Assembly (NCBI GenBank): GCA_035249365.1
Contig: DATFGP010000022.1
Location: 192,013-256,012 of the forward strand
From: Pyrinomonadaceae bacterium
Lineage (GTDB): Bacteria > Acidobacteriota > Blastocatellia > Pyrinomonadales > Pyrinomonadaceae
Direction of reading: 5' to 3'
Length of the DNA: 64,000 nt
Shown here: positions 41,254-64,000 of the stretch, piece by piece
Layout of the letters: each line of letters opens with the position of its first letter
Position numbering within the stretch: position 1 is the stretch's first letter
Notes under the pieces: model-generated
Seen by the model: only the letters and a program-made list of their open reading frames with translations
Told to the model about the DNA's origin: nothing
Database searches by the model: none
Translations under genes and position numbers: made by a program

Positions 41254-41369
41254 TATCTGAATTCTTCAACTTTGATAAAGTATGTTGAGTCTGAAAGTTT
41301 TTTGGTAAACGCATTGGATTTTGGCTAAGGCGCCGCGATCTAATAATTTATATTTTTGGCCTTTGCCTG

Positions 41370-42386
41370 TTGCAATCGTTCTTCTTCACATGTCAAGGAC
41401 ACATAGCGATGCAACCACCGTCGAACTTGAATAACAATAAGCCGGGTAAAGATAATGAATCGTTATTAAAGAAAGTCCTCAGATTACTCGGCATTCTAGG
41501 CTTGGGCGTTTTAGGTAGTTGGCTGGCTGGTAAAATTCCAACCTCAGACCACTTGCCTAATTTGCAGCGGTTTCAGATGGCTATTCCTTGGATATTGGCT
41601 ATCTTTTTCTTTATAACAACGTCGCTCTTGTATTTGAAATCGCGCGGGCATAAAGAGCTGGAAGGCAGAAAGAACGCACTGGAAAGCAGAAAAACCGAAT
41701 TAGATGCGGAATGCAAACGCTTACAAGAAGATTACTCGTCATTAGAGATCGAAGTCAAAAGATTACAGGAGGAGAACTTAAAGCTTCAAATCGAACTGCC
41801 ACGGGAGTGGGTAGGCATTCAGGAGCGGACTGGACTTCAAGGTTACGATCCTGACTTGAGTGATAGCCCGTTTCATCCTGAAAGGTGCTTGCCGACAATC
41901 GGTAAGAGTTTAAGTTTTATGGGTCACGGCGCAAGCAAATGGACGGCGCATGTCCCACCGCTGGAAGATATGCTTGAAAGAATCCGGGGTGAAAGAAACA
42001 AGAATAACTCAAAGGCAGTAGTAAAATTTCTTATTCTTAATCCGGCTCACGAAAAGAATACAAAACAACAGCGCCGCAGAATTGCAGTCAGTTTGATGAA
42101 TCTCAAATTTTTGCAGAATGAATTTCCGGAAGTGTTAATGATAAGGGTTTTCAATCACCTCCCACAGTTCAGATTAATTTTTATTGATGGTAAAAAACTC
42201 GTTGTTGGACATTACGGGGGCGAACAAAGAAAAGAGAGCGACAATACTCCTTTGCATGTTTATAGTATCGAAGGTGAATGGAGTTTCTTTCATCCTTTCG
42301 AGGAACATTTCAATACTGAATGGGCTGCCGCCAAGGTTCCAGAGTGGACGGAAATCGACACCATTGCAAACCAACCGGTCAACTGA
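41370..42386 (+). CDS. Hypothetical membrane protein with coiled-coil and an uncharacterised C-terminal domain (AT-rich island)
   Basis: Two TM segments, then a heptad-rich region (ELEGRKNALESRKTELDAECKRLQEDYSSLEIEVKRLQEENLKLQ), then an about 170-aa C-terminal domain. No family recognised. Confidence 0.55.
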   Translation: MQSFFFTCQGHIAMQPPSNLNNNKPGKDNESLLKKVLRLLGILGLGVLGSWLAGKIPTSDHLPNLQRFQMAIPWILAIFFFITTSLLYLKSRGHKELEGRKNALESRKTELDAECKRLQEDYSSLEIEVKRLQEENLKLQIELPREWVGIQERTGLQGYDPDLSDSPFHPERCLPTIGKSLSFMGHGASKWTAHVPPLEDMLERIRGERNKNNSKAVVKFLILNPAHEKNTKQQRRRIAVSLMNLKFLQNEFPEVLMIRVFNHLPQFRLIFIDGKKLVVGHYGGEQRKESDNTPLHVYSIEGEWSFFHPFEEHFNTEWAAAKVPEWTEIDTIANQPVN

Positions 42387-42409
42387 CAAGAAGACAGTGA
42401 GAAATCATT

Positions 42410-43465
42410 ATGAGTTCCAAGACAAGATTTCTTGATCTAGCCATGCACGGCGGATGCTCGAAGAAGGTTGGCGGCAAGGATTTACAAAGACTGCTTTCCA
42501 ATTTAGCTGACTCCGAAACGGATCACCAATTTTCTGAAATTAAAGGCTGGCTGGATTTTGGCCTTTATGAGCGTAAAGATGAGGCTCTAATAAGTAATGT
42601 TGATATTGTTCTGCCGATGGTTCCTAATCCTGCCGACTTCGGGGAAATTGTTGTTGCACATGTCTTGAGCGACATTTACACATCTGGAGCAAAGCCGCTT
42701 TTCGGGCTTAACATCCTCGGCGTTCAACAAACCATTGATTTAAGCAGTAACGGCAATGACATAAAGTTAATGCTGGCATCTGCTGCTAAAAAGCTACACA
42801 GCGCAGGAGCGCAACTCGTCGGCGGGCACTCGATTGGAAATCAATCTGACCTTTATTACGGTCTAGCAGTGTTCGGGATAATTAACAAAGATTCGTTAGT
42901 AACGAACAAAGGGGCCAAAACAGGTGATGCTTTAGTCCTAACAAAACCGCTTGGAACCAGCATCGCCTCAAAACTATGGAAGAGTAATCATCACCTTGAG
43001 AACGATTTCCAAGATGTGTTAACAGGTATGAAGCAACTCAATGACATAGCAGCAGAAGAAATGCTTAAAGGCCAAGCTCACGCTTGTACTGACATCACAG
43101 GTTTTGGCTTGCTCGGCCATACACATAATCTGCTTCGTGCGAGTGAGGCAGCTTGCGTCATCAACGTCGAGAACTTGCCCATTTATGATTCGGTGCAAGA
43201 CTTCGGCGGAGCTGAGTATCAAACGATGATTTTCGATAAGAATAAAGAATACGTCGTTGACTACGTAAATGACGATGATGTAGAGCTAACTTCATTGCTT
43301 GATGTTGTTATTTATGATGCTCAGGTTTCCGGCGGTCTACTCGTAAGTCTTACTCATGAGGAAGCTGGCAAATATGTCGAACGATTGAGAGACAGAGGAG
43401 TTACAGCATCTATTATTGGCGAGGTAGTAGAAGGTCAAGCGGGGTATATAACGCTTTTGCCATAA
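42410..43465 (+). CDS. selD: Selenide, water dikinase (selenophosphate synthetase), Cys-type, in AT-rich island
   Basis: Collinear with E. coli SelD throughout. N-terminal HGGCSKK loop corresponds to the catalytic Cys/Lys. Also PMVPNPADFGEI, GGHSIG, DITGFGLLGH. Confidence 0.8.
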   Translation: MSSKTRFLDLAMHGGCSKKVGGKDLQRLLSNLADSETDHQFSEIKGWLDFGLYERKDEALISNVDIVLPMVPNPADFGEIVVAHVLSDIYTSGAKPLFGLNILGVQQTIDLSSNGNDIKLMLASAAKKLHSAGAQLVGGHSIGNQSDLYYGLAVFGIINKDSLVTNKGAKTGDALVLTKPLGTSIASKLWKSNHHLENDFQDVLTGMKQLNDIAAEEMLKGQAHACTDITGFGLLGHTHNLLRASEAACVINVENLPIYDSVQDFGGAEYQTMIFDKNKEYVVDYVNDDDVELTSLLDVVIYDAQVSGGLLVSLTHEEAGKYVERLRDRGVTASIIGEVVEGQAGYITLLP

Positions 43466-43477: not shown

Positions 43478-45787
43478 ATGACTACAGAACTAATCAAAGT
43501 TACGATCAATGGCAACCTCTACGAAGTGGAGAAGGGTGCGCGCCTCATTGATGTGTGCCGCGAGCGTGGGCACGCCGTTCCCTCTTTCTGTTATTACGCA
43601 GACCTCGCGCTGCAAGCCTCTTGCCGTATGTGCCTTGTGCGCATCGAGAAGATGCCGAAGCTGCAAACGTCCTGCACGATCACCTGCACGGACGGCATGA
43701 GCGTCACGACGGAAAGCGAAGAGATCGAGAAGGCGCAGCGCGGGATGGTCGAATTTTTGCTCGCCAACCATCCGCTCGATTGTCCCGTCTGTGATCGCGG
43801 CGGCGAGTGCGAGTTGCAGGAGATGGTCTTCGACTGGGGCGGCCTCGAAGAACGCTTTCGGGAGAAGAAGAACTACTACCCCGAAAAATTCCTGTCGCCT
43901 ATCGTCGCTAACGATCCGCAGCGTTGCATTTTGTGTAAACGCTGCACGCGCGTCTGCGATGAGTGGATGGGCGAGGACGCTATCGAAGCGGGTGGGCGCG
44001 GCGCGAACACAGTCATCGGCACGTTTGACGGCTGGCTCAATTGCTCACAGTGCGGCAACTGCATCGAAGTCTGCCCGACGGGCACGCTGCTAGATGCTAC
44101 ATACCGACATCAAGCGCGGCCTTGGGAACTCTCGCAGACGATCACGACATGCAATTTTTGCTCGGACGGCTGCCAGATGTCGCTCGGTTCGCGCGCCGGA
44201 GAAGTAATGCGTTCCGTCGCGCGCGACCGTTACGTCAACGGCATCAACGGCGAGTTTCTATGCATCAAAGGCCGCTTCGCGCACCCCTTTATCAATCACG
44301 ACGAGCGCATCAAGACGCCGCTCATACGCTACAAAAAGGGCGGCAAGCTAATTCCGGCGACGTGGGACGAAGCCATACGCCACACCGCCGCGAAACTGCA
44401 AGAGATCAAAACGGCACACGGCGGCGACTCGATCGGCGTCGTCGGCAGCCCGCGCATCACGAACGAGGCAAACTACGCGCTCTTGAAGTTCGCGCGCGAA
44501 GTCGTCGGCACAGAGAACTACACCGCGACGGACGCCTTCTCGCTCGTGCCCTTCTTCGCGAATTTGAGCGCGCCGCTGGCGACGCATCGAGACATTCGCC
44601 ATGCCAAGACGATCATACTCATCGGCGGCGAGCCGGAAGAGTTGCAGCCGCTCACGGGTCGGCAGATCAGGCAGGCCGTCCGAAACGGCGGCGCAAAACT
44701 CGTCGTCGTGGGCAGCGTGCCGATTCGTTTGAAACAAGCGGCGACGCAGTTCATACACATCAATCCGGGCGCGGAAGATGCCGCCGTGCTCGCTTTCGCT
44801 GGCAGCGAATACGCGACTGCCGCGCACAAGTCGGGCGTAGAAGCGCGTGAGTTTGAAGATGCGCGGCGCATCGTAGAAGAGACGACGGGCGATGTCGTCG
44901 TCATGTTCGGCGAGTTGAGCGCGGCGGCGCAAACGGCGCTCGCAAACATTCCTTCAAATTACGGCGAGCAAACCGGCCGACGCTTTTTGTTTCACCCGCT
45001 CCCGCTCTACAACAACAGCGTCGGTGTACACGATCTCGGCTTGATGGGGGGCGCGCTCGACGCCGCAGGCATGCTCGATGCGGCGGGCACGAGGCTTCGC
45101 GCGCTTTACGTCGCGGGTAGTTTCTTGCCACGGCATCTCGCGGGGCGCGAGGACGCGCTCTCGAAGCTGGACTTCCTCGTCGTGCAGGAAATGTTCGAGA
45201 CGGAGACGACCGCGCACGCCGACGTGATCTTTCCCGCCGCGTCCTACGCGGAGACGGACGGGACGTTTACGAACAACGACGGGTTAGTGCAGCGCGTGCG
45301 CCAGTCAATTCCGCCCGTTCATCAATCGAGACCGGACTGGATGATCACTGACGCGCTCGCGCAGGGGCTAGGCGCAAACTTCGACTTCCAGTGGTCGGCC
45401 GGAAAAGTCTTCCTCGAGCTTGCGCGCAGCACGGCGGCATATGCGGGCATGAAGTTCGCGCTTTTGAAAGACGAGACGCAGCCTGTTCAAGCGAGGCACG
45501 CGGTTGCAGGTAGCGGCGCGAGCGATGCCGTGTCAGGTGCGCTGGCAAGTTTACGCGAGACGGTCGAGGCGTTGAGCTATACGGGCGAGAAGATCACGGA
45601 GACGCCGCCCGTCGGGCATGAACTGTTTAAGCCGGGGACGCTGACGGGCAAGACGCCGCAGTTCCCTCTGCTCGACGCCGGAAACCCGAAACCGCCCACA
45701 GTGCTCGTGTCGCCGCTTTATCAAATTTCCGTTGACCCCGCGCTGCGCCGCGCGACTGTGAACGCCGCAGCCGCCGCAGGAGACTAG
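43478..45787 (+). CDS. nuoG: NADH-quinone oxidoreductase subunit G
   Basis: 75-kDa subunit. N-terminal 2Fe-2S ferredoxin, and CPxC.../CxxCxxxCP clusters. Confidence 0.95.
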   Translation: MTTELIKVTINGNLYEVEKGARLIDVCRERGHAVPSFCYYADLALQASCRMCLVRIEKMPKLQTSCTITCTDGMSVTTESEEIEKAQRGMVEFLLANHPLDCPVCDRGGECELQEMVFDWGGLEERFREKKNYYPEKFLSPIVANDPQRCILCKRCTRVCDEWMGEDAIEAGGRGANTVIGTFDGWLNCSQCGNCIEVCPTGTLLDATYRHQARPWELSQTITTCNFCSDGCQMSLGSRAGEVMRSVARDRYVNGINGEFLCIKGRFAHPFINHDERIKTPLIRYKKGGKLIPATWDEAIRHTAAKLQEIKTAHGGDSIGVVGSPRITNEANYALLKFAREVVGTENYTATDAFSLVPFFANLSAPLATHRDIRHAKTIILIGGEPEELQPLTGRQIRQAVRNGGAKLVVVGSVPIRLKQAATQFIHINPGAEDAAVLAFAGSEYATAAHKSGVEAREFEDARRIVEETTGDVVVMFGELSAAAQTALANIPSNYGEQTGRRFLFHPLPLYNNSVGVHDLGLMGGALDAAGMLDAAGTRLRALYVAGSFLPRHLAGREDALSKLDFLVVQEMFETETTAHADVIFPAASYAETDGTFTNNDGLVQRVRQSIPPVHQSRPDWMITDALAQGLGANFDFQWSAGKVFLELARSTAAYAGMKFALLKDETQPVQARHAVAGSGASDAVSGALASLRETVEALSYTGEKITETPPVGHELFKPGTLTGKTPQFPLLDAGNPKPPTVLVSPLYQISVDPALRRATVNAAAAAGD

Positions 45788-48184: not shown

Positions 48185-50599
<2,415 letters not shown>

Positions 50600-52222: not shown

Positions 52223-52825
52223 TTGAAGTTGGTCGGATTTGAAGTAAGTATGTTGAAACTAAGCAAGAGGTTTTATCTCGCTACGGCGTTGCTGCTCGCT
52301 TTGCTCTGCGGCGCATTGCCGCTCGCGGGGTCGCCGCACGCTAATTCAAACGAACGCGTTAGTATTAAGCTCAAGGGCGTTGACGGGAAGACTTACGATG
52401 TGGCCGCGATGCGCGGCGAAGTGGTGCTCGTCTCTTTCGGCGCGACGTGGTGCAAGCCGTGCGCGTGGGAGTTGGAAGCCCTCGAAGAGTTGAAGCGTGA
52501 GTATGCGGGGCGCGGCGTCAAGTTTTTGTGGGTGAGCATTGAGAATGACGATCAAACTTCAAACGAGTTGCTGCGCGATTACGCGAAGTCTCTGAAGATG
52601 ACGATTCCCGTCCTGCGCGATCCTGAAAAGACCGCCTTCGCGCAGTTCAGCGAGCGCGTGCGTCTGCCGATGGTCGTCTTCTTCGACCGCGAAGGGAATT
52701 TCATCCCGCCCAAGCACACGGGCATGACTTCGCAAGCAGAGGATTACAAGAAACTGATCCGCAGCCGTCTCGACCAGATACTCCGCGCCGAAGAGGATGC
52801 GGGCGGCGCGCCCCCGCTGCCGTAA
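52223..52825 (+). CDS. TlpA/ResA-like thiol-disulfide oxidoreductase (thioredoxin fold, WCKPC) inserted between nuoM and nuoN
   Basis: Signal/lipoprotein-like N-terminus, and SFGATWCKPC in a TlpA-like context. Confidence 0.8.
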   Translation: MKLVGFEVSMLKLSKRFYLATALLLALLCGALPLAGSPHANSNERVSIKLKGVDGKTYDVAAMRGEVVLVSFGATWCKPCAWELEALEELKREYAGRGVKFLWVSIENDDQTSNELLRDYAKSLKMTIPVLRDPEKTAFAQFSERVRLPMVVFFDREGNFIPPKHTGMTSQAEDYKKLIRSRLDQILRAEEDAGGAPPLP

Positions 52826-52886: not shown

Positions 52887-54464
52887 ATGAACTTGTGTCT
52901 CGCATTTCAAATTGCTCAGGCCGCGTCGCCTGACATCAATTTCATGCTCATCCTGCCGGAGACGATCATCTCCGTCGTGGGCGTGCTGGTCATGCTCGTC
53001 GATGCGTTCACGCGCCGCTCGAGCCAGCGCTGGGTGACGGGACTGCTCTCGCTCGCGGGACTCGTCGCCGCCGCAGCCGTCTGCATCCTCATGTGGAACG
53101 ATCAGACGACAGCGCGCGAAGCCTTCAACGGAATGATCGTGCTCGATCGCATGCGGCTCTCCTTCACGCTCGTCTTCCTCGTCGTCTCAGCACTCACGGT
53201 GCTCATCTCGATGATCTGGGTCGAATGGGAACACTTGCCTGCGGGCGAGTTTCATTCGCTCCTGATGTTCGCCACCGTCGGCATGACGCTGATGGCTTCG
53301 GGCGGCGACCTCGTGATCATCTTTCTCGGTCTCGAACTACTCTCCATCGCCACCTACGTCATGGCCGGATTCCGACGCACGGATGTGCGCTCGAACGAGT
53401 CCTCGATGAAGTATTTCATACTGGGCGCGTTCTCGTCTGCGTTCCTGCTCTACGGCATCGCGCTCGTCTACGGCGGCACGTCACTCGCAAACGGCGGCGC
53501 GGGCACGACCAACATTAAAGAACTCGCGCTCAGAGTCGGTGCGGAGAACGCTCTGGCCTACCCCGCGCTCCTTTACGCGGGCGCGGCGTTGATGCTCGTC
53601 GGCTTCGGATTCAAGATCGCGACCGCGCCGTTCCACGTCTGGACGCCCGACGTGTACGAGGGCGCGCCTACGCCCGTCACGGCTTTCATGGCCGCCGGGC
53701 CGAAGGCTTCCGGCTTCGCAGCCTTCATGCGCGTCTTCCTCTTCGGCTTCCCCTTCATCGCTGCAACGACGAACGCCGCGCAACTCCATTCCGCATGGAT
53801 GAACGCCCTCTGGCTGCTCGCGATCCTAACGATGTCGGTCGGCAACCTCGCTGCGCTCGTGCAGACGAACGTCAAACGCATGCTCGCCTATTCGTCCATC
53901 GCGCACGCGGGCTACGCGCTAGTCGGCTTCGTCGCGGCGGGACAGGCGCGCGATGAGGCGTTGCAAAATGAAGCCATCGCCGCCGTCGCCTTCTACCTTC
54001 TGGCCTACGCGGTGATGAACCTCGGCGCGTTCGCCGTCGTCACGCTCATCGCGCGCAGCGGCGACCGACGCACGGAGATCGAAGACTACAACGGCATCGG
54101 ATTTACCGCGCCCGCGCTCTCCTTCGCGCTCACGCTTTTTCTACTGAGTTTGCTCGGTATCCCTCTCACCGCAGGATTCATGGGCAAGGTGATGGTCTTC
54201 CGCGCCGCGCTCGATCAAGGCTTCGTCGCGCTCGTCGTCATCGGCGTTCTCAACACTGCGATTTCGGTATACTATTATTTGCGGCTCGTCGTCGTGATGT
54301 TCTTCCGCGAACGCTCGACCGCTTGGAGCGCACCCGCCGTGCCCGTCAGCGTCGCGCTGGCGATCATCATCACGGCGCTCGGCGTGTTTTATCTGGGAAT
54401 TTTTCCGGGTCATGTGTTGGACGCCTTCCGCGACTCGCAACAAGCTGTCAGCCAATTGAAGTGA
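52887..54464 (+). CDS. nuoN: NADH-quinone oxidoreductase subunit N
   Basis: ND2 family. Its TGA stop is the first TGA of the following R4 element. Confidence 0.9.
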   Translation: MNLCLAFQIAQAASPDINFMLILPETIISVVGVLVMLVDAFTRRSSQRWVTGLLSLAGLVAAAAVCILMWNDQTTAREAFNGMIVLDRMRLSFTLVFLVVSALTVLISMIWVEWEHLPAGEFHSLLMFATVGMTLMASGGDLVIIFLGLELLSIATYVMAGFRRTDVRSNESSMKYFILGAFSSAFLLYGIALVYGGTSLANGGAGTTNIKELALRVGAENALAYPALLYAGAALMLVGFGFKIATAPFHVWTPDVYEGAPTPVTAFMAAGPKASGFAAFMRVFLFGFPFIAATTNAAQLHSAWMNALWLLAILTMSVGNLAALVQTNVKRMLAYSSIAHAGYALVGFVAAGQARDEALQNEAIAAVAFYLLAYAVMNLGAFAVVTLIARSGDRRTEIEDYNGIGFTAPALSFALTLFLLSLLGIPLTAGFMGKVMVFRAALDQGFVALVVIGVLNTAISVYYYLRLVVVMFFRERSTAWSAPAVPVSVALAIIITALGVFYLGIFPGHVLDAFRDSQQAVSQLK

Positions 54465-54550
54465 CGAGTGACAGGTGACAAGTGACAAGTTAAAGCAAAA
54501 AACTTGTTTTGTTCTTGCTTGTCACTCGTCACTCGTCACTCGTCACTTCT
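54463..54550. repeat. Foldback element R4 following nuoN
   Basis: AGTGACGAGTGACAGGTGACAAGTGACAAG ... CTTGTCACTCGTCACTCGTCACTCGTCAC. Confidence 0.85.
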
Positions 54551-54551
54551 T

Positions 54552-55124
54552 ATGTCGTCTGCGACGAAGAGAGTTGATCAGTCGAGCGCACCCGTACAGG
54601 CGGGGGCTGCGGAGACGACTCGCGCGGCCAATTCCCTCGAAGCGTTGGCCGCGCAGATTAAAGAGATGCTTGGCGAATCATGGCTGCCGCGTTATTATCG
54701 TGAACGGATTTTGACTCTGCGCACGCGTGCTCACCAATTGCAAGCCGCATCAACGAAACCCGAACAAGTCAACGTGCAGCACACGCTGCTCGGCGTCGAA
54801 TTAAAGATCGGACGCCGCCGCATCAGTTGCCCCGATCTGGCGACCGCCCGTTACCTCGCGACATTCGCACGAGCGGGCTGCACGGGCGTGGCCGTCCCCT
54901 ACGACATCTCACGGATTTCCCTGCTCGCAGACGAACTCGAATCCGGTTGGCAACGCATGTTGTTGCTCGTAGAACATCTGGCGGGCGGGCGCAGCAAGGC
55001 TTACCGCACGCGCCTGCGCAACGCTCTCATCGCGCAGGCGCGCCGCGAAATTGCGGAGGCCGGAATTGGCACACTTATTCCACAATTCAACCAGAATACG
55101 AAACAACGACGGCGCGGCGTTTGA
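54552..55124 (+). CDS. Hypothetical protein
   Basis: Start MSSATKRV sits directly after the R4 element (…TCACTTCTTATG). No family recognised. Confidence 0.5.
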   Translation: MSSATKRVDQSSAPVQAGAAETTRAANSLEALAAQIKEMLGESWLPRYYRERILTLRTRAHQLQAASTKPEQVNVQHTLLGVELKIGRRRISCPDLATARYLATFARAGCTGVAVPYDISRISLLADELESGWQRMLLLVEHLAGGRSKAYRTRLRNALIAQARREIAEAGIGTLIPQFNQNTKQRRRGV

Positions 55125-55154
55125 ACATCTAATCCCGAACTGGTAAATTATTTT

Positions 55155-56087
55155 TTGATGATGCAAGAAGTTAAAGAGAAAATCACGCCCATTGATCAAG
55201 AGGAACCGCTCCCCTTCCCTTTCAACCAACGCAGCTTTTGCCGCTTCGAGTCGATTGAAAAGCGCATCGAGGCGATTCGCGTGCTCGTCATAGATGATCT
55301 GCTGCGCGACGAAAGCGATCTCTCCGAACTGGCGGTGCGCGAGTGGGGGCGGCGCGCCAAGTCGCACCTGCAACGCGAGCGTCAGATCGCGGATCTCGCC
55401 GTCTCGAACATTCGCAACAACATTTCGCGTCTCGTGCGCGAGCCGGAAACGCGCGTTGCGCACGTCTCGGAAATTGCCGAGGTGGCCGACGAGTTCGAGC
55501 CGCAGGCGATAGTTTTGAGCGGTACGCTGCGCGACTTCGACTACTATCACCCGCGCGTCATCGAAAACTTCGGCCAGTTCATACGCACTACGAAGATTCC
55601 CGTGCTCGGCATTTGCGGTGGGCATCAACTCGTGGGACTCGGCTTCGGTGCGCGCGTCGTCACGCTCGACAACCGCGAGCAGCACGAGCGCCGCGACGGG
55701 CGACCCTTCGAGTACCAGTATCGCTTCATACGCATCACCGACCCCGAAGACCCGATCTTCGAGGGCGTGAGCGACCGCGAATCAGGCATCTGGCAGGACT
55801 ACACTATCGAAGCCTGCATCCTGCGCGTCTGGCAGAATCACGGCCTCCAACTCGATCACGTCCCGGAAGGTTTCAAACTCCTCGCCACCGCCTACTTCTG
55901 TCGCAATCAGATGATGGTCAAACGCAATGAGGGGCAACTCATCTATACCGTGCAATTCCACCTCGAAAAATCTTTCGAGGACTGGGACAAGACGCGCGCC
56001 ACGCGCTGGGAACACCCGAACGAGTCGCGCGACGGGCGCATCATCTTCGAGAACTTCCTGCGTGAATCGCTCAAACACGCGGCGTAA
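55155..56087 (+). CDS. Class I glutamine amidotransferase-like protein
   Basis: GICGGHQLVG nucleophile-elbow context and a distal His region. Has an N-terminal extension. Confidence 0.75.
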   Translation: MMMQEVKEKITPIDQEEPLPFPFNQRSFCRFESIEKRIEAIRVLVIDDLLRDESDLSELAVREWGRRAKSHLQRERQIADLAVSNIRNNISRLVREPETRVAHVSEIAEVADEFEPQAIVLSGTLRDFDYYHPRVIENFGQFIRTTKIPVLGICGGHQLVGLGFGARVVTLDNREQHERRDGRPFEYQYRFIRITDPEDPIFEGVSDRESGIWQDYTIEACILRVWQNHGLQLDHVPEGFKLLATAYFCRNQMMVKRNEGQLIYTVQFHLEKSFEDWDKTRATRWEHPNESRDGRIIFENFLRESLKHAA

Positions 56088-56110
56088 ACATTTCGAGTTA
56101 GCGAGAGACG

Positions 56111-56148
56111 CAAAAAAGCCTCCGGCGCGATTGCCGGAGGCTTTTTTG
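56111..56148. terminator. Bidirectional rho-independent terminator
   Basis: A6-GCCTCCGGC-gcgatt-GCCGGAGGC-T6. Confidence 0.8.
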
Positions 56149-56180
56149 CGTTTCTGGAAATTCAGGAGACGCGCCCTCGG

Positions 56181-57290
56181 TCAGATGGTGGGAACGTTTT
56201 CCATTGTGAGTTGGATGAGGCGATCAACCACGTCTTTGAGATCGCCCGTCTCGGCGAACACACGCAGTTGCTCATCGGCTGACGTGCCGCGTTCGAGGAT
56301 TGTGTGGATGTGTTCGACCTCCTTGCGCGAGCCGAGATCGTCGAGCACCTCGTCAACGAAGTCGAGCAGTTCGAGTATGAGATCGCGTACGGGCACTTCC
56401 TTCTGCTTGCCGAAGTCGATCATCTTGCCCTCCAAGCCCCAGCGCACCGCGCGCCACTTGTTTTCTTGAATCAATGCGCGGCGATAGAGGCGGAAGCCGA
56501 GATTTTTCTCGATCAATCTATCGAGCCGGGCGACGATGGCTTGGAAGAGCGCGGCGATGGCAATCGTGTCGTCAACACGCGTCGGGATGTCGCAGACGCG
56601 AAACTCAAGCGTCTCAAAATATGGATGCGGGCGCACGTCCCACCAGATTTTTTTCGGGTTGCTGATGCAGTTCGTGTCGAGCAGGAGTTTGATGTAACGC
56701 TGAAACGAAGCGTAGGAATCGAAATGGTCTGGAATATCCGTGCGCGGAAACTTCTTGAAGACTTCGGAGCGGTAAGACTTCAATCCCGTGTTGATGCCGA
56801 GCCAGAAGGGCGACGAAGTGGTCAGCGCCAACACGTGCGGCAGGAAATAGCGCGCGGCGTTCATAATGTGAATCTGCCGCTCGCGGTCTGTGATGCCGAC
56901 GTGGACGTGCAGGCCGAAGATGAGAAGCGAGCGTGCGACCATCTGTAGTTCTTCGATGAGGAGCGTGTAGTGCGGGTCGTCGTAAATCTTTTGCTCGCGC
57001 CACTGCGAGATCGGGTGGGTCGAGGCAGCGACGACTTCGAGGCCGTTTTTGCGCGCAAGCGAAGAGACGATGGCGCGCAAATTTGTGATATCGGTGCGCG
57101 CCTCCTGAATGTTGTGACAGATGCCCGTGCCGACTTCGATCATTGACTGGATCATCTCCGGCTTGATCTTCTCGCCGAGCAGCATCTTCCCTTCCTCAAG
57201 CATTTCCGAGACGTGCGAACGCAACTCGCGCGTCTGCGGGTCAACGATCTGGAATTCTTCTTCGATGCCAAGTGTGTATTGCTCGAACAT
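56181..57290 (-). CDS. YbdK-type carboxylate-amine ligase (glutamate-cysteine ligase family 2)
   Basis: LGIEEEFQIVD ... FGLHVHVGI ... WWDVRPHPYFETLEFRVCD matches GCS2/YbdK. Confidence 0.85.
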   Translation of the reverse strand: MFEQYTLGIEEEFQIVDPQTRELRSHVSEMLEEGKMLLGEKIKPEMIQSMIEVGTGICHNIQEARTDITNLRAIVSSLARKNGLEVVAASTHPISQWREQKIYDDPHYTLLIEELQMVARSLLIFGLHVHVGITDRERQIHIMNAARYFLPHVLALTTSSPFWLGINTGLKSYRSEVFKKFPRTDIPDHFDSYASFQRYIKLLLDTNCISNPKKIWWDVRPHPYFETLEFRVCDIPTRVDDTIAIAALFQAIVARLDRLIEKNLGFRLYRRALIQENKWRAVRWGLEGKMIDFGKQKEVPVRDLILELLDFVDEVLDDLGSRKEVEHIHTILERGTSADEQLRVFAETGDLKDVVDRLIQLTMENVPTI

Positions 57291-57403
57291 ATGTTTACGC
57301 TCTCCTTGCAAGACCCGACATGAGTTGAGCTATTGGGGGAAGAAACGGAAAACTTCAAACGCAGCCTGCCGCTAACGGCGTCGCCCCGCCCGCATGGGTG
57401 GCT

Positions 57404-57934
57404 CTAAGCGAGCGTCGCCTTGATCGCGCGCCAGTCCGGCGTCTCGCCGCGCACCATCTCACGCCACAAATGGCGGAGCGCGCTGAGCGGGCTGGCGAGG
57501 GGCGAGTACACATCGAAATGAACCCCCCAGAGCGGAGCGACAGTTCGCATCTTCAAAAAATGCAGCACGGCGCGCGAGCGGCCAGTCTCGTAAAAGCCTT
57601 CTGCGGTATTGCGGTGCGCGGCGAAGCGCGAAGTAAAGTTGCGACTTTTAGCCAACGTCGCGGTAAGGTTACCGCGCGCGCGAAAATCCATGCCGACGCC
57701 GCCGAGACCGTACACGTTCCCGATGCTTTCGATCTCGCGCCACAGATTCAACTCTTTCAGGCGACGGACGAAGAGCAACAACGCTTGTTGCTTGTCCACG
57801 TCGAGCACGTCGAACGCGTCGCGGGCATCCGCGTGCCCGTACAAGCCTGCGACCTTTTGAGCCAAATCGTCGCGCAAGTCTTCGGGCAATTCGTCCCAGC
57901 GCAGCTTCGCGTCGTCAATCGCCTCGCCCATCAA
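57404..57934 (-). CDS. Hypothetical protein co-transcribed with PilZ and YbdK-like genes
   Basis: 176 aa. Its start overlaps the PilZ stop. No family recognised. Confidence 0.5.
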   Translation of the reverse strand: MMGEAIDDAKLRWDELPEDLRDDLAQKVAGLYGHADARDAFDVLDVDKQQALLLFVRRLKELNLWREIESIGNVYGLGGVGMDFRARGNLTATLAKSRNFTSRFAAHRNTAEGFYETGRSRAVLHFLKMRTVAPLWGVHFDVYSPLASPLSALRHLWREMVRGETPDWRAIKATLA

Positions 57935-58269
57935 CTTTGGCGCTGTAGAGCGCGCATCATCGTCGCGCGATCCTTCTCCGACAGTCCTTGAAAACGCACA
58001 CCCACGCCGAGGCCGGGATTGCTGTAAACCACTTCGGCGTTAACGATCACGTCGCCTTCCGCAAACGGGAGGCGAAGCGTGAGCAAGCCGCCTTCGGGCA
58101 ACTCGGTCTGCGTGTTCATGTAGAGGCCACCGGGGCTGATGTCTTTGGTGCTGGCGATGGCCGTGCCGTCAGCGCCGTCGAAGAACACGTCAACGATCAG
58201 GCGCGAGCGGTCGTACTGGCGTCGCTCGTCCGCTGGCAAATTCGACTCCGCATCAAACTCTTCGCTCAT
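57931..58269 (-). CDS. PilZ domain protein (c-di-GMP binding)
   Basis: RRQYDRSR ... DISPGGLYM matches the RxxxR / D-x-S-x-x-G PilZ motifs. Confidence 0.75.
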   Translation of the reverse strand: MSEEFDAESNLPADERRQYDRSRLIVDVFFDGADGTAIASTKDISPGGLYMNTQTELPEGGLLTLRLPFAEGDVIVNAEVVYSNPGLGVGVRFQGLSEKDRATMMRALQRQS

Positions 58270-58408
58270 GCTCTCACTCTCCGTGCCGGATGAGTCTAAA
58301 GGTGAAGAACATCTGTATCTTACTCAAAGCCGAACAAAAGCGCGTCGCCCATTTTTCCTCATCGAAACAAAGCAAGCCGAATGTTAGACAATGTGTCAGA
58401 CGATGGCC

Positions 58409-59764
58409 TCACGTCTTCTCGCTGATGATGAACGTCGGAACCATGCCGCCGCCCGACGAGACGTTGGCGAGTTCTGTAAACGAAAGACGCGTGAAGGCCG
58501 AGCCGACCTTGCCGAAGAACAAAAGCGGGTCGAGGTCAACGAGTTGCTCCGCAAACTCAAACGTGCCGTCCGGCTGCAAGGCCGGAAACGCTTCGCGCGC
58601 AGTGCTCACGCGTTCCTGCAACAAGTAGTCGCCGTTGGAGAGCGCGTGGCGCAGTGCTGTGTCCCAACCGATCTCGTCTGTGTTCCAACCGATGTAGATG
58701 CCATGCCCGCCGTAGTCGTCGTTGGGTTTGAGGACGAGCCGGTCGCGCGAGTTGGCGGCAAATTCGAGCAGGTCTATTTGTTCGCCGTAGTGGTCTGTGC
58801 GTTCGGCGCGCACCTTGCGCGTCCAGGGGACGTGCGCGCGAATGGCAGCACGCTCCTCTTCGCTGAAGAGATGCGCGTAGCGTTCGTTCGTAAGCACGGC
58901 GAAGAGTGCTTTCTTGTGAATCAACTTGGAGCGGAAACTGTTGACCATGCAGATCGCGCCCGCGCGGTAAGCGTCGAGGAGCGCGGGAAACTCCGCCATG
59001 ATCGGGATGTACTCGTTGACGAGAAGACGCTTGTAGACGATGTCGATTTCATCCGCGCCGCAACGCAGGCGACCACCGCTAAACTCCAACTCCTGCGGCG
59101 AGCAGACGATTGACCTGTAGCCTTCCGACTCGAAATACTCCTGAAATAACTCGAACTCTTTTTGCGTCGGCAGGTCTTTCAAATCAATGATGGCGATGAG
59201 CGGTTTGCGTTCCGGCTCGCGCCCCAGATATTCCGTGTAGGCGCGCAGCAACACTTCGAGCATGAGATGGCGTCCGTAGAGCGGGCGCACGTTATAACGC
59301 TCGCCGAAGCGTTTCATCACGGGCAACTCGGAGAAGATCGAGAAGGCTGCATCGACGTAAGCGATGCCTGCGGGGCTTTCGCCGTTGAGTTCGACGAAGC
59401 TGTAGGCGTCGTCGGTCAGGAACGAATCGAGGCGCGCGGTCGGCGAGACGGCATCGTAGCCGGGGTCAATGCTGACGAGATCGCGCTCTAGTTCGGTGAT
59501 ACCGAGTTCATCCAACAATTCGTCGTTGCCGACCGCCGCGTCCTTCACCTTCTGGATCGCGCCCCAGACCACCTCGCAGACGCGCTCGATGCGCGCGAAG
59601 TCGGTTTCGGTGACGAAGTGCGGGCGCAGGTAGGGCGACAGACGACGACCGCCGAAGATCAGTTTAGCGCGCTCCAAACCCTCGTCGAGCATCTTGCGCG
59701 ACGCCTCGGCCAGATCATTATCCGCCAACAACTGGTGATAGTGCTCAACAGCTTCGTGTAGCAT
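58409..59764 (-). CDS. Circularly permuted ATP-grasp family protein (COG2308-like amidoligase)
   Basis: 451 aa. LKPNDDYGGHGIYIGW and surrounding conservation are typical of the circularly permuted type-2 ATP-grasp family. Confidence 0.7.
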   Translation of the reverse strand: MLHEAVEHYHQLLADNDLAEASRKMLDEGLERAKLIFGGRRLSPYLRPHFVTETDFARIERVCEVVWGAIQKVKDAAVGNDELLDELGITELERDLVSIDPGYDAVSPTARLDSFLTDDAYSFVELNGESPAGIAYVDAAFSIFSELPVMKRFGERYNVRPLYGRHLMLEVLLRAYTEYLGREPERKPLIAIIDLKDLPTQKEFELFQEYFESEGYRSIVCSPQELEFSGGRLRCGADEIDIVYKRLLVNEYIPIMAEFPALLDAYRAGAICMVNSFRSKLIHKKALFAVLTNERYAHLFSEEERAAIRAHVPWTRKVRAERTDHYGEQIDLLEFAANSRDRLVLKPNDDYGGHGIYIGWNTDEIGWDTALRHALSNGDYLLQERVSTAREAFPALQPDGTFEFAEQLVDLDPLLFFGKVGSAFTRLSFTELANVSSGGGMVPTFIISEKT

Positions 59765-59950
59765 GCCGCTCCCGTAGGAAACTTTTGCGAAAGCGATTTG
59801 TAAATCAAGAGCAAGTGTGCCGCTAGAGTATCACAATCGGGAAGGCAAAGGTAAAAAGGAACGAAAGAAAGGGTGGCGATTTGGTTTGAATTCAAGTGAA
59901 ACCGTCATATAAACTTCGGAGCGTTGAGGATGTGGCACACCTAAGATAAA

Positions 59951-60520
59951 ATGCTCAACATAATGACGCTTGACATATGGCTAAAGATTATCTCGACGTT
60001 CTTCACCGCCGTCATAGGTGTAGCAGCTTGGCTTATAGCTTATCAACAACTCAGGCTTAACAAAACGCTTTCTTCACAACAAATCAGACTTGCTTCCGAG
60101 CAACTCAGACTTAGCGAGGCTAAGTTAAAGTTTGACTTGTACGAACGGCGTCTAAAACTATTTGAGATAGTTAAAGAATTCAATGGTGGCTTCGCTATGA
60201 GTGGGAAAGCCGACACAGGCAAGTTTTATCACGATACAATTGAACGGCACTTTTTGTTTGATGACGATGTATCCGCTTATATTGGTGAGGTGTATCAAAG
60301 GGCGCTTAAGGCAAAGCGTACTATACTAAAACTCGACAGCCCAAATCTCACCGAAGCTGATAGAGAAACACTTAATGCACAACATGTAGCACAGATGCAG
60401 TGGTTCTACGATCAGGCGGAAAATGCACCTAAGGTCTTTTCTAAAGATTTATCTATCAATACTCTTAAACAGTCTGGTTTGTTGCCTGTGAAATCCTCAT
60501 ACCCTCAGCTTTCAAACTGA
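59951..60520 (+). CDS. Hypothetical protein with N-terminal TM helix, in an AT-rich islet
   Basis: 189 aa with low GC. No family recognised. Confidence 0.45.
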   Translation: MLNIMTLDIWLKIISTFFTAVIGVAAWLIAYQQLRLNKTLSSQQIRLASEQLRLSEAKLKFDLYERRLKLFEIVKEFNGGFAMSGKADTGKFYHDTIERHFLFDDDVSAYIGEVYQRALKAKRTILKLDSPNLTEADRETLNAQHVAQMQWFYDQAENAPKVFSKDLSINTLKQSGLLPVKSSYPQLSN

Positions 60521-60597
60521 ATCACTACCAAAGAAAGCGGATGCCGATCAGCCTCCCGTCATCTCTTTCGCCTTTCAGCGTATTAAGTTCGCAGATG

Positions 60598-62577
60598 CTA
60601 CTGCGGGAGGTTCTGGCGTGATAAGTTGAACGAGAATTTTTCGCCCGCGCGGAGCACGCCGAGCGAGAGGTCTGTGTCGAAATCGGCTGGGAGATTCCAA
60701 CTCGTGTCGGAAAAGAGTTGGCCGTTGATTGATTCGATGATGTCGCCCGGCTGGATTTTGTTTCGCGCCGCCGCGCTCCCCGGGCGCACGGACATGACGA
60801 GCAAGCCGTTCTTCTGATTTGCTCCCAACAAATGTGTCGCCGCAGGTGAAATTCGCACGGCTTCCAGCCCGAAAGTCAGGAGCGGCTTGACGGCCAAACC
60901 GTTGTAAGCCTCGCTCGCCGCGCGATAACGCGCTTCGGCTTCGGCCACACGCGCGCGCATGAGTTCGTAGTCGGCGGAAAGTTTTTGCGCTTGCTCCGAC
61001 GCCTCTCTGTGCTGCGCCCGCACGCGCTTCAACTCTTCCTCTAGCTTCATCAGCTTGGCCTGCGGCTCGCTGTCCTGTAGTCGCTTGCTTTCAGTTTCAA
61101 ACTGGCGTAAGGCCGTCTCGAAGCGGCGCACATTTTCCTCAGTCGTGCGGAGGCTAAACTGTTTCGTGCGTAAATCCGACTGCGCGGCGCGAAGCTCGGC
61201 GCGCGCCGTGTCCAGCCCCGGACTCGGCGATTCGCTGAGACGCACGGACAAGTTGAGCGGCGCGCTCTGCGCGCGGAGCACTGTGAAGTTAGCGAGCGAG
61301 TTGCCGCCGAGTTCTTTGATCATCGAAGACATATCTTCGATGCTGCGCACGTCGTGTCGCCCGATGCGCGAGACGACATCGCCCGGGCGCAGGCCAGCGC
61401 TTGCGGCGGGCGTGCCGGGCGCAACCGAAGTCAAGAGCACGCCGCGCTGTTGACTCATCAGCAGGCGCGCTTGTTCGAGCGGCCAGCCGCGCGCGAGCAA
61501 CTGTTCGAGCGGCGCACGTGCGAGCGCGTCGCCGCGCGCACCGAGCCAGGGCTGCGGCACGCTCGCGCGTCGCGCCCTCACACGACGAGCCGCGCCGCGC
61601 ACAGTCTCAGCGGACATCAGACGCGCCCCTTCCGCGTCCGATTCTTCGACGATGCCGACGAGCGTTCCCGTCTCGCTCAAAGCGACGCCGCCCGCCCATT
61701 CCGGCGAGACGCCGTCAACTTTCACCGTCACCTCCAAAGCCCTGCCGGACGGCGAACGCTTCACCTCGCGCAGATGCCCCGCCTCTTCGTCCATGTTCAT
61801 GTAGATGAAGCCTGTCTCTCCGACGGGCGCATCATCCGGTCGCGCTGGCGTGGCCGCAGGTGTCGGCGCAGGTGGAGTTGGTGCGGGTGGCGTCGTCGCC
61901 GCAGCGACAGGAGTTGCCGCACGCACGGGCGCGATCACGCGCACGCGCTGGCCGACGACGGGCTGGACGTTTGCGGCTTCCGCGAAGGGCGCGAACAGAG
62001 GCTTGTCCGATTCGAGGAGCGAGAGGCCGGTGCTGGCGTCGAGTCCGATGAAGCGCGCGCCGAACTGCGCGCCGTCGGGACGCACGAGCAGCAACTCTGT
62101 GGCGTCGCCGTTCGTGGCGAGCAATTTGGGATTGCGGAAGGCGGTCGAGAGGTTCAACATCTCGGCTTCGGCCTGCGGCAGGCGCGCGATGACCGAGCGA
62201 CCGTCGGGCATGATGAAGCCTGCGACGATGTTGGTGCGTACGAAATTCTCGTCGAAGGCGGACGCGGCGGGCGCGTCTGCGGGCATGAGCAGCGTGCGCA
62301 GTTTCCATCCGCTCATCCGATGGACGACGGCGATCACTGGCAGCGCGTCCGTTTGAACTTTAGCCTGCGCACGTGCGATAGGCTTCGCCGGAGTCGCGGC
62401 GACGGGAACTTGCGGGCGATGCGGCGGCCTCGTCTCTTGCGCGCGAACAACAGCGGCGGCATGCGCGCCGAACGTGCAGAGCGCGAACAAGGCGACGGCG
62501 GGCACGCGTCCCGTCCTGCCGTGCGCGGCAAAAATTTCACCACCTTGTTGTCTCAAAAGTTTCAGCACAACTACCAC
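60598..62577 (-). CDS. Periplasmic PDZ-domain protein with coiled-coil and Pro-rich linker (sigma-E regulon partner)
   Basis: Two PDZ-like segments (GLRPGDVVSRIG..., IQPGDIIESING), a long coiled coil, and a TTPPAPTPPAPTPAATP linker. Its start overlaps the anti-sigma gene. Confidence 0.7.
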   Translation of the reverse strand: MVVVLKLLRQQGGEIFAAHGRTGRVPAVALFALCTFGAHAAAVVRAQETRPPHRPQVPVAATPAKPIARAQAKVQTDALPVIAVVHRMSGWKLRTLLMPADAPAASAFDENFVRTNIVAGFIMPDGRSVIARLPQAEAEMLNLSTAFRNPKLLATNGDATELLLVRPDGAQFGARFIGLDASTGLSLLESDKPLFAPFAEAANVQPVVGQRVRVIAPVRAATPVAAATTPPAPTPPAPTPAATPARPDDAPVGETGFIYMNMDEEAGHLREVKRSPSGRALEVTVKVDGVSPEWAGGVALSETGTLVGIVEESDAEGARLMSAETVRGAARRVRARRASVPQPWLGARGDALARAPLEQLLARGWPLEQARLLMSQQRGVLLTSVAPGTPAASAGLRPGDVVSRIGRHDVRSIEDMSSMIKELGGNSLANFTVLRAQSAPLNLSVRLSESPSPGLDTARAELRAAQSDLRTKQFSLRTTEENVRRFETALRQFETESKRLQDSEPQAKLMKLEEELKRVRAQHREASEQAQKLSADYELMRARVAEAEARYRAASEAYNGLAVKPLLTFGLEAVRISPAATHLLGANQKNGLLVMSVRPGSAAARNKIQPGDIIESINGQLFSDTSWNLPADFDTDLSLGVLRAGEKFSFNLSRQNLPQ

Positions 62578-63446
62578 ACACCTTGATTCGACGAAAGCGA
62601 CGCTTTGGCGAATGACGCGGGGCGTCCGATGACATCGCGCGAGCCGAAGGAGACCGAGTCAACCGAGATGGTGCGCGCCTCGCCGCTCCTGTCGCGGAGC
62701 ACAACGTTCAACGGTCGCTCCGACGCGCCGAGTTGCACGGGGATGAGCGCGCCCTCGCCCCGCCGCGCGTTGGTCGCGTCGAATCTCACGGTCGAACCCA
62801 TCAAGCCCGCAGAACTGGAATCCTCAACTCGCGTCCCTGCCGTCTCAAGCGTCGCCTCGCGCACAGCGGCTGCGACTGCGCGCTCAGGCAAAACGCGCCG
62901 ACGCTGTGCGGTCTGATTCTTCGAATGCGTCGCGGCGTCGTCCTGCCCTGTGTTGACGACAACTTTCGCTTCCTCTCTCGCTTGATCACCTGCTACCTCA
63001 CCCACTTGATCGCTCGTTTGAGCATTCGCTTGCTCATTGATAGCAGTCGCTTCTGCTACGCGAGACAGTGGCGAGGCGTTGCTCGCGTGTTCAGACAGCG
63101 TGGCATCCGGCTGCTGTTGTTGAAAGTAGAGCGCGGCGGAGACGACGAGCGCGAGGCAGGCGGCGAGCGGCCAGGAGAGCGCGGCGGGCGCGAAATTAAA
63201 CAGGCGCGTGCGCGGCGCGCGTCGTGCGGCGAGCTCTGCGGCCATGCGTGCTCGCACGCGGAAGTCGAAATCTGCGGGGGCGGAAACTTTTTCCAGCCCG
63301 CTGATCAACTGACGCAGCGCGAGACGTTCTTCACCGAACGCGCGGCAACTCGCGCACGCCGCCAGATGCGCCTCTGCTGCGCCGCTCAGATGCTCGCGTC
63401 GTAAGTCCTGCTCCTCGATCTCGTTTTTGCACTTCTGACAATTCAT
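62571..63446 (-). CDS. Anti-sigma factor with zf-HC2 putative zinc finger
   Basis: N-terminal H...C...CxxC pattern (HLSGAAEAHLAACASC), then a TM segment and a periplasmic domain. Confidence 0.7.
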   Translation of the reverse strand: MNCQKCKNEIEEQDLRREHLSGAAEAHLAACASCRAFGEERLALRQLISGLEKVSAPADFDFRVRARMAAELAARRAPRTRLFNFAPAALSWPLAACLALVVSAALYFQQQQPDATLSEHASNASPLSRVAEATAINEQANAQTSDQVGEVAGDQAREEAKVVVNTGQDDAATHSKNQTAQRRRVLPERAVAAAVREATLETAGTRVEDSSSAGLMGSTVRFDATNARRGEGALIPVQLGASERPLNVVLRDRSGEARTISVDSVSFGSRDVIGRPASFAKASLSSNQGVW

Positions 63447-63485
63447 TTTTTTTTACACCACCAAATGTCGCCTTCTAAAACGCGA

Positions 63486-64000
63486 CTATAAATAGTCCTG
63501 CAACTTGTCGCGCAAAAATGTGCGTGCGCGGCTGATGCGCGATTTCACAGTGCCCTCACTCATCTCAAGGATGCGCCCGATCTCTTCGTAGCTGCGTTCT
63601 TCTATGTCGCGCAGGACGAGCGGCGCGCGATACTTCTCCGGCAGCGTCGCAATAGCGCGTGCCACCGCCGCGCGGCGTTCGTCTGCAACGAGCGCGGCGT
63701 CCTGCAAAGGCCGCCTGTCCGCAGGGTCTAACTCTGTCGGCTCGCCCGACCCGTCTTTCGTCTGGAAGAAGCCCGTCAGCGAGACGAGACGGCGACGCTT
63801 GCGCTGTCGAAGCTCGCTGATCGCGAGGTTGGTCGCGATGCGGTAGATGTAGGTCGAGAAAGCGTAGGTCGCCTGATAGCGATCCGCCGCGCGAAAGACG
63901 CGCATGAAAGTCTCCTGCGCCAGATCAACCGCCGACTCGTAATCGTTCGTCAGGCGATAGACGTAGTTCGTGATCTGGTTGCGATAGCGCCTGACGAGTT
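63486..64000 (-). CDS. ECF (sigma-24 type) RNA polymerase sigma factor, N-terminus beyond window edge
   Basis: Region-2 (YIYRIATNLAISELRQRKRR) and region-4 HTH (RSYEEIGRILEMSEGTVKSRISRAR). Partial gene. Confidence 0.8.
   Translation of the reverse strand, partial: LVRRYRNQITNYVYRLTNDYESAVDLAQETFMRVFRAADRYQATYAFSTYIYRIATNLAISELRQRKRRRLVSLTGFFQTKDGSGEPTELDPADRRPLQDAALVADERRAAVARAIATLPEKYRAPLVLRDIEERSYEEIGRILEMSEGTVKSRISRARTFLRDKLQDYL

Follow-up and report, generated by a model that had tools for sequence, protein, structure and literature searches.

A predicted amide-ligase operon of Pyrinomonadaceae with a PilZ protein and an orphan protein inserted between its two ligases

Organization of the locus

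The stretch of DNA analyzed here (the window; 64,000 nucleotides, positions 192,013 to 256,012 of contig DATFGP010000022.1, GenBank assembly GCA_035249365.1) belongs to the metagenome-assembled genome of a Pyrinomonadaceae bacterium (Acidobacteriota, Blastocatellia). Four adjacent minus-strand genes in it are the subject of this report, and encode, in order, a predicted circularly permuted ATP-grasp ligase of 451 amino acids (aa), a single-domain PilZ protein, an orphan protein termed U176, and a ligase of the YbdK/GCS2 family (GCS2). The last of these genes faces a convergent gene for a glutamine amidotransferase-like protein (GATase1), from which it is separated by a terminator. An earlier note had described the five open reading frames (ORFs), their spacings and the bidirectional terminator, all of which were borne out by the ORF coordinates and by folding of the hairpin. 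The features are as follows.

58409-59764, minus strand: 451-aa circularly permuted ATP-grasp gene, predicted first gene of the operon (ORF, fold model and PF14403 matches of relatives)
57931-58269, minus strand: gene of a 112-aa single-domain PilZ protein (PF07238, 52 bits; gathering score 22.5)
57404-57934, minus strand: gene of the 175- or 176-aa orphan U176 (ORF; no family match)
56181-57311, minus strand: YbdK/GCS2 ligase gene, predicted last gene of the operon (PF04107, 207 bits; NF010039, 540.6 bits)
about 56104-56155, both strands: bidirectional intrinsic terminator (hairpin read in the sequence; folding z-scores)
55155-56087, plus strand: GATase1 gene (PF00117, 67 bits)

The ATP-grasp and PilZ genes are separated by a spacer of 139 nt. 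The PilZ and U176 genes overlap by 4 nt if U176 starts at TTG and by 1 nt if it starts at ATG (175 aa, as in the public annotation), and U176 is followed by GCS2 after 92 nt (TTG start, 376 aa) or 113 nt (ATG start at 57290, 369 aa). A simple terminator scan, which also overlooked the hairpin at 56104-56155, listed no internal terminator in the three operon spacers, and folding of these spacers revealed no significant structure (z +0.4, +1.2 and −1.4). A search of positions 54400-60700 against Rfam at permissive E-values gave no riboswitch, including no c-di-GMP (cyclic di-GMP) riboswitch; the matches were solely miRNA-like and fell on two long hairpins. Because the spacers showed no terminator, Rfam family or significant structure, the four minus-strand genes look like one transcription unit, a four-gene operon running from the ATP-grasp gene to GCS2. 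Defense-system models gave zero matches among the six proteins checked.

The terminator between GCS2 and GATase1 is a perfect 19-23 bp G+C-rich hairpin with A6 and T6 on its flanks. Compared with shuffled sequence, its folding is highly favorable on both the plus strand (−48.2 kcal/mol, z −10.0) and the minus strand (−39.1 kcal/mol, z −8.4). It ends the ligase operon on the minus strand and, on the plus strand, a small unit formed by GATase1 and the preceding gene, U206.

The two ligases

The 451-aa protein is identical to an NCBI protein with the locus tag VJ842_08740, and is a member of a large family, for which a search at E ≤ 1e-3 returned 3,731 cluster representatives; most of these are full-length matches of 440-480 aa, with identities down to 27%. 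The protein scored 21.9 bits against PF14403 (CP_ATPgrasp_2, type 2; gathering score 32) and 16.2 bits against PF04174 (CP_ATPgrasp_1, type 1, corresponding to COG2308; gathering score 23.1). Among 45 diverse full-length relatives, PF14403 was matched by 41 at E ≤ 1e-3 (best E 3e-17), PF04174 by 21, and the GspS family (PF03738) by 11, and a precomputed PF14403 match is present on many proteins 90-98% identical to the 451-aa protein. By these profile comparisons, the protein is a divergent branch nearest to CP_ATPgrasp_2 and not a member of COG2308/type 1. The earlier description of the gene as a COG2308-like circularly permuted ATP-grasp was therefore right as to the permuted fold and wrong as to the family. 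Genes for alpha-E and transglutaminase proteins were, as previously remarked, found neither in this region of the window nor in the annotated related loci; their absence is no anomaly, because these partners belong to type 1 and the 451-aa protein is nearest to type 2.

A search of the Protein Data Bank (PDB) with the single sequence gave chance matches only, and a family profile was required to detect structural relatives. The profile matched the type-1 structure 3N6X (5e-15), Cp1B (3e-12) and, more weakly, YgiC/YjfC and GspS (1e-6 to 1e-4, GspS at 1e-4). An AlphaFold model computed from the family alignment reached a pLDDT of 95.2 and a pTM of 0.93. Its top Foldseek matches in the PDB were the human, soybean and yeast glutathione synthetases (E 1e-17, TM ~0.70), with which the protein shares only ~15% sequence identity, followed by 3N6X, YjfC/YgiC, GspS, trypanothione synthetase and Cp1B; all top matches are circularly permuted ATP-grasp carboxylate-amine ligases. 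Two motifs, E125-x-N127 and K346-P-N-D-D-Y-G-G, are conserved in the family, with E125, N127, K346 and G352-G353 being invariant or nearly so. The E125-x-N127 motif lies N-terminal to the Gly-rich loop K346-PNDDYGG, which would be the order expected for the permuted topology. As modeled, the 451-aa protein belongs to the circularly permuted ATP-grasp ligases, and its fold is closest to that of eukaryotic glutathione synthetase. Identity with glutathionylspermidine synthase, against which the earlier note had cautioned, is not indicated: the protein has no match to PF03738 (the GspS synthetase domain), relatives match it in 11 of 45 cases only, and the profile match to GspS is remote. The Pfam glutathione-synthetase family was likewise not matched, and literature searches returned no paper that characterizes an enzyme of this ATP-grasp branch.

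GCS2 scores well above the cut-off (371) of NF010039, the 'carboxylate-amine ligase' equivalog, and under the cut-off of the glutamate-cysteine ligase equivalogs (391 bits, cut-off 409). The protein was aligned over its full length (residues 7-360) with the YbdK structures 1R8G and 1TT4 (E ~1e-50), and is assigned by sequence to the YbdK/GCS2 family of carboxylate-amine ligases.

PilZ and the orphan protein U176

Both c-di-GMP-binding motifs of the PilZ protein are intact, namely R17-QYD-R21 (RxxxR) and D43-I-S45-PG-G48 (D/NxSxxG). The RxxxR motif was found to be kept in 59 of 66 orthologs, six of the seven failures being tblastn alignments that start past the motif, and the D/NxSxxG motif in 61 of 66, with Ser replaced by Gly in the remaining five. 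Identity across the Blastocatellia clade is 56-88%; judged from this conservation, PilZ is under purifying selection and is less constrained than both ligases. Among the loci examined, PilZ was observed between the ATP-grasp and GCS2 genes in Blastocatellia only, and the protein is described here as a putative c-di-GMP receptor encoded by a lineage-specific insert between the ligase genes.

U176 has no family match in Pfam or NCBIfam and no detectable fold, and a PDB search with its single sequence gave chance matches only. There are 151 detectable homologs, all from Pyrinomonadaceae or other Acidobacteria, and each one checked for location was found in the slot between the ligases. Even the most divergent homologs (50-53% identical) are encoded in this slot, and their genes usually overlap PilZ by 4 nt as well. 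This start-stop overlap, kept in divergent genomes, is consistent with translational coupling of U176 to PilZ. U176 is fast-evolving, with 42-68% identity where the ligases hold 69-95%. Its alignment contains the conserved internal motifs NVYGxGGVG, FTxRFAxH, EGF, HFD, RHLWxE and PDW, and structure prediction suggests that the protein folds into an alpha+beta domain, in which internal His, Asp and Glu residues and a Gly-rich motif are conserved. On the basis of these predictions, U176 resembles an enzyme or a binding module more closely than it does a tag. The C-terminus is variable in length and sequence across 33 homologs, without a conserved terminal Glu, Gln, Gly or Lys, which rules out the Pup-like tag or substrate with a conserved C-terminus that had been envisaged for this protein. 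U176 is a genuine lineage-specific orphan, known solely from its position in this operon.

Conservation of the gene neighborhood

The best 80 species-representative loci of a genome scan, all from Blastocatellia and with ATP-grasp proteins 67-94% identical to the 451-aa protein, were compared. The full order ATP-grasp-PilZ-U176-GCS2 was found in 39 of them, the order ATP-grasp-PilZ-GCS2 without U176 in 11, and the order ATP-grasp-U176-GCS2 without PilZ in 2-3; a few loci are interrupted by contig ends. PilZ lies between the ligases in at least 50 of the 80 species genomes. The cluster sought in related genomes at the suggestion of the earlier note does recur, and because it recurs in dozens of genomes, the ligase-PilZ-U176 arrangement is not chance. 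Within Blastocatellia, mean identity is 76% for the ATP-grasp protein and 83% for GCS2, and the divergences of the two correlate (r = 0.90 over 50 genomes). Upstream of the operon and on the same strand lie genes for an ECF sigma factor, a putative anti-sigma protein and a large PDZ-domain protein (60598-63905, minus strand), which are syntenic with the ligase operon in most cluster-bearing genomes (L001, L003-L009 and L167-L169 of our loci).

Outside this lineage, 56 loci with ATP-grasp proteins 38-61% identical to the 451-aa protein were collected from metagenomes and contig look-ups, and 54 of these have enough downstream sequence. GCS2 is located immediately downstream on the same strand, with a gap of 5-270 nt, in 30 of the 54, and on the same strand within ~4 kb in 6 more. 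The pair is also adjacent in five of six Pfam-annotated loci (Acidobacteriota, Chloroflexota and Terriglobia); two of these loci, additional to the 56 and one of them from Terriglobia, show the same pairing. No PilZ or U176 gene was detected in the distant loci, whether with tblastn or with HMMs of the Blastocatellia orthologs. Other genes are found there instead. Upstream, 20 loci have an esterase-type alpha/beta-hydrolase and 19 have a RimK-like ATP-grasp; downstream, some loci have an ATP-grasp_4 protein or M29 aminopeptidase, and 3 have a C26 peptidase. From this distribution, the ATP-grasp and GCS2 genes constitute an apparently ancient, widely distributed two-gene module, in line with the earlier view that the two ATP-dependent amide ligases form a genuine system.

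Several neighbors of the distant loci were recorded separately. An apparent GATase adjoining the ATP-grasp gene at locus L102 proved to be carA/carB. At the Terriglobia locus L171 (8562-10343), genes for a pyruvoyl arginine decarboxylase and a deoxyhypusine/homospermidine-synthase-like protein are located ~2.4 kb downstream of ATP-grasp-GCS2, a hint that the substrate may be a polyamine. At two other loci, L085 and L170, the esterase genes are preceded by a gene for an S8 peptidase carrying a CBM48 domain.

Relation to known systems

The closest counterpart is the system in which a RoseRS_2616-type permuted ATP-grasp protein (PF14403) is associated with a GCS2-like ligase and hydrolases, and which we take, from its Pfam entry, to be a predicted small-peptide synthesis system. 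Iyer, Abhiman, Burroughs and Aravind (Mol Biosyst, 2009) reportedly predicted this pairing of permuted ATP-grasp and GCS2-like proteins for small-peptide synthesis. The association described here rests on the counts given above and not on that survey. As in the predicted systems, both ligase families are encoded adjacently on one strand, and the loci from other phyla show the expected esterase, RimK-like plus ATP-grasp_4, and M29/C26 peptidase genes. The Blastocatellia version differs in having lost the esterase, RimK-like and peptidase neighbors and gained PilZ and the 175-aa orphan between the ligases, and its 451-aa protein is a divergent branch under the PF14403 gathering score. No homologs of the esterase, RimK-like, ATP-grasp_4, M29 or C26 partner genes were detected in the whole 64-kb window.

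A second likeness is to two-step glutathione synthesis. The plant-type gamma-glutamylcysteine ligase (GshA/GSH1) belongs to the GCS2 family, and eukaryotic glutathione synthetase is the archetypal permuted ATP-grasp enzyme. The operon likewise combines a GCS2-family ligase with a ligase predicted to have the glutathione-synthetase fold (TM 0.70 and E 1e-17 for the model), both being ATP-dependent carboxylate-amine ligases by family assignment. In contrast to the glutathione pathway, the second ligase is only ~15% identical to glutathione synthetases and lacks the Pfam match, and GCS2 falls into the 'carboxylate-amine ligase' equivalog rather than that of glutamate-cysteine ligase (391 bits against the required 409).

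Cp1B, E. coli YgiC/YjfC and GspS are the nearest characterized relatives of the 451-aa protein by profile and fold, and are ATP-grasp enzymes that join a carboxylate to an amino acid or polyamine. Sequence similarity to them is very remote, however (profile E 3e-12 for Cp1B, 1e-6 to 1e-4 for the others), and their gene contexts are different, none including GCS2 or PilZ. Cp1B is a ligase of the fungal E-64 pathway (PDB 9CJN) and catalyzes the condensation of a dicarboxylic acid with an amino acid (PMC12568646).

For the connection to c-di-GMP, the rimABK operon of Pseudomonas is instructive. C-di-GMP stimulates its ATP-grasp ligase RimK, which was also pulled down with the biotinylated nucleotide, and rimA (encoding an EAL domain) and the small regulator gene rimB are lineage-specific additions to the operon (PMC4741518). 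Both operons thus combine an ATP-grasp amide ligase with a c-di-GMP-related gene and a small accessory gene. Unlike the 451-aa protein, RimK is a classical, non-permuted ATP-grasp enzyme that modifies ribosomal protein S6; the c-di-GMP component of rimABK is a phosphodiesterase and not a PilZ receptor, and there is no GCS2 partner. By analogy, rimABK is a partial precedent for a c-di-GMP link to an ATP-grasp amide ligase. The earlier note had regarded the tie between PilZ and such a system as undescribed. PilZ is indeed conserved in its slot with intact motifs, and no paper found in literature searches describes PilZ inside such a ligase operon; the link between c-di-GMP and an ATP-grasp ligase as such has been reported for rimABK (PMC4741518).

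Proposed mechanism

What does the operon do? We consider it moderately probable that it comprises a ligase pair acting in sequential synthesis, into which a lineage-specific c-di-GMP regulatory module has been inserted. The separate parts of this interpretation differ in strength. From family membership and conserved adjacency, the ATP-grasp protein and GCS2 very probably form a functional ligase pair. By analogy, PilZ could well act on the ligase pathway, a proposal that we find plausible and not quite probable. A glutathione-like product is possible, again by analogy, and on balance doubtful.

GCS2 members with known activity form gamma-glutamyl-cysteine or gamma-Glu-X, and the enzymes nearest in fold to the ATP-grasp protein extend the carboxylate of a (gamma-glutamyl) peptide with Gly, an amine or a polyamine. 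From this known chemistry of GCS2 and the ATP-grasp relatives, and from that of Cp1B, we infer two successive amide-bond formations. The two ligases would act in sequence, as do GshA and GshB, each spending ATP to convert a carboxylate to an acyl-phosphate that is then joined to an amine. Together they would yield a small di- or tripeptide of the gamma-glutamyl type, or else a conjugate of a peptide with an amine, and the larger operons in other phyla may add more ligation and trimming steps. In Blastocatellia (Pyrinomonadaceae), PilZ and U176 would have been inserted between the ligase genes. Single-domain PilZ adaptors elsewhere act through direct contact. More speculatively, c-di-GMP-bound PilZ could be an adaptor that makes protein-protein contact with one of the ligases or with U176 and so modulates it, and would thereby couple synthesis of the product to the c-di-GMP state of the cell. 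The most specific version, in which the stand-alone PilZ, possibly with U176, gates the two-ligase pathway via c-di-GMP and so places glutathione-like peptide or thiol synthesis under second-messenger control in Pyrinomonadaceae, is a tentative one that we hold to be rather unlikely in full.

Several observations weigh against sequential synthesis under c-di-GMP control. The 451-aa protein itself is below the PF14403 gathering score. GCS2 is not nearby in 18 of the 54 distant loci. PilZ and U176 can each be lost, with PilZ occurring without U176 in 11 genomes and U176 without PilZ in 2-3. In 20 of the 80 Blastocatellia loci (plus 5 incomplete ones), the ATP-grasp ortholog (67-75% identical) is solitary, with PilZ, U176 and GCS2 absent within 6-8 kb; physical linkage is therefore dispensable in 20-25 of the 80 genomes. 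The identity of the product is a guess, as the substrates of GCS2/YbdK proteins are poorly defined and this ATP-grasp branch is uncharacterized, and contact of PilZ with either ligase is a proposal only.

The solitary ATP-grasp genes occur in two housekeeping contexts, either with an EVE-domain gene, a carboxyltransferase gene and LpxC, or with SerA, KdsB and PyrG. None of the 80 loci are two ATP-grasp copies from one genome. In a neighbor-joining tree, the two solitary types were observed to form coherent subclades, one of them nested within the cluster-bearing clade and the other having a PilZ-U176-GCS2 locus (L066) at its base. The solitary types are read, on this tree, as a secondary break-up of the ancestral operon. 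PilZ is found beside the ATP-grasp gene in neither of the two broken-up clades.

Alternative explanations

The alternative that survives best is that PilZ and U176 are unrelated passengers, a small cassette that landed in the ATP-grasp/GCS2 spacer of a Blastocatellia ancestor and is simply transcribed along with the ligases, with the target of PilZ lying elsewhere in the cell. The ligase pair does occur without the two genes in all other phyla sampled, each of the two has been lost in some sublineages, and U176 evolves much faster than the ligases. A passenger, however, would hardly account for the retention of PilZ in the exact slot, with conserved motifs, even where the ATP-grasp protein has diverged to ~70% identity, for the confinement of all 151 U176 homologs to this lineage and of every one checked to this slot, or for the failure of PilZ ever to remain beside the ATP-grasp gene in the two broken-up clades. 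We regard this explanation as improbable, and prefer a regulatory insert linked to the ligase pair.

The model of the earlier note, a five-gene amide-ligation system with GATase1 as its amidotransferase or peptidase partner, is very unlikely. GATase1 has a Pfam GATase match and retains the nucleophile motif GICGGHQ and an H-x-E motif (FHLE), so that by sequence it looks catalytically competent; it lies in the same neighborhood in most cluster-bearing genomes, and a C26 peptidase of the GATase1 fold is located directly 3' of GCS2 on the same strand in 3 of the 54 distant loci. The protein nonetheless is closest to GuaA-type GATase domains, and comparison with the operonic C26 peptidases of the distant loci revealed nothing specific (E 0.008, confined to the catalytic Cys motif). 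Its gene is convergent to GCS2, past the strong terminator, and is tied to the genes on its other side, the first of which is

54504-55124, plus strand: U206, gene of a 206-aa protein (ORF; no family match)

Over 46 related genomes, the gap between GCS2 and GATase1 can be as short as 102 nt or as long as 5359 nt, and just 7 genomes have a gap of ≤200 nt; elsewhere it measures 0.7-5.4 kb, mostly with at least one gene inside, and one complete genome has five unrelated genes in between. The gap between GATase1 and U206, in contrast, is 24-200 nt in all genomes but one (627 nt), and U206 abuts nuoN. U206 and GATase1 are a conserved two-gene unit at the end of the nuo cluster, with no function assigned by family. 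GATase1 therefore closes a small U206-GATase unit that follows the nuo genes, and neighbors the ligases by synteny only.

The least probable alternative is protein or peptide tagging in the manner of Pup/PafA or RimK, with amino acids ligated onto U176 or U176 onto targets: PafA and RimK are protein-modifying GCS2-like and ATP-grasp ligases (PMC2588565, PMC4741518) and U176 is small and exclusive to this operon, but its C-terminus is variable with no conserved terminal residue of the kinds named above, its predicted folded alpha+beta domain is more like an enzyme or binding module, and it is missing from the other ligase-pair lineages and from 11 Blastocatellia genomes that have PilZ and both ligases.

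Other features of the window

Between nuoN and the U206-GATase unit, a near-perfect hairpin with a stem of ~40 bp (54458-54549; −58.4 kcal/mol, z −10.4) starts in the nuoN stop region and overlaps the start of the U206 ORF. It is composed of tandem GTGAC(A/G)(A/G) heptamers and their complements, and was the source of spurious matches to miRNA precursors in Rfam. This hairpin may be a terminator or repeat element separating nuoN from the unit.

Farther into the nuo cluster, a thioredoxin/redoxin-fold gene is located between nuoM and nuoN (52223-52825, plus strand), and NuoL (48185-50599, plus strand; 804 aa) contains a long His/Ala/Ser-rich low-complexity insertion. A block of low G+C content (40723-43465; 0.47-0.49, compared with ~0.59 elsewhere) lies between nuoF (39372-40697) and nuoG (43478-45787) and encodes a NUDIX hydrolase, a 338-aa protein without a Pfam match and an AIR-synthase-related (PurM/ThiL/SelD-like) protein. 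The block looks like a horizontally acquired insert in the respiratory operon.

On the other side of the ligase genes, a 189-aa ORF without a family match (59951-60520, plus strand) is divergent from the ATP-grasp gene. A tblastn search found it in its own contig only and in none of the related loci, and the ORF was probably inserted recently into the interval that separates the ligase operon from the PDZ-protein gene.

Implications

What is new in this operon? The ligase core is already known as a predicted kind of system, whereas the insert of PilZ and an orphan protein is a new lineage-wide variant; in literature searches, no paper found describes such an insert between these ligases. None of the features is mechanistically unprecedented. 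GATase1 and the 'missing' alpha-E/transglutaminase partners drop out of the system.

The pairing of a type-2 circularly permuted ATP-grasp protein with GCS2 (cpATP-grasp-2/GCS2) is common in soil phyla, and the predicted fold and the partner of the ATP-grasp protein point to a glutathione-like two-step synthesis. For most PilZ proteins, the targets are the main gap in knowledge, and the Blastocatellia variant offers a candidate physical target for an orphan PilZ protein of the single-domain type. If the proposed mechanism is true, the operon would provide the first example of an amidoligase under PilZ control, and the uncharacterized cpATP-grasp-2/GCS2 module would gain a function. Overall, c-di-GMP control would then be extended to small-peptide metabolism in Acidobacteria, a dominant but little-studied group of soil bacteria.

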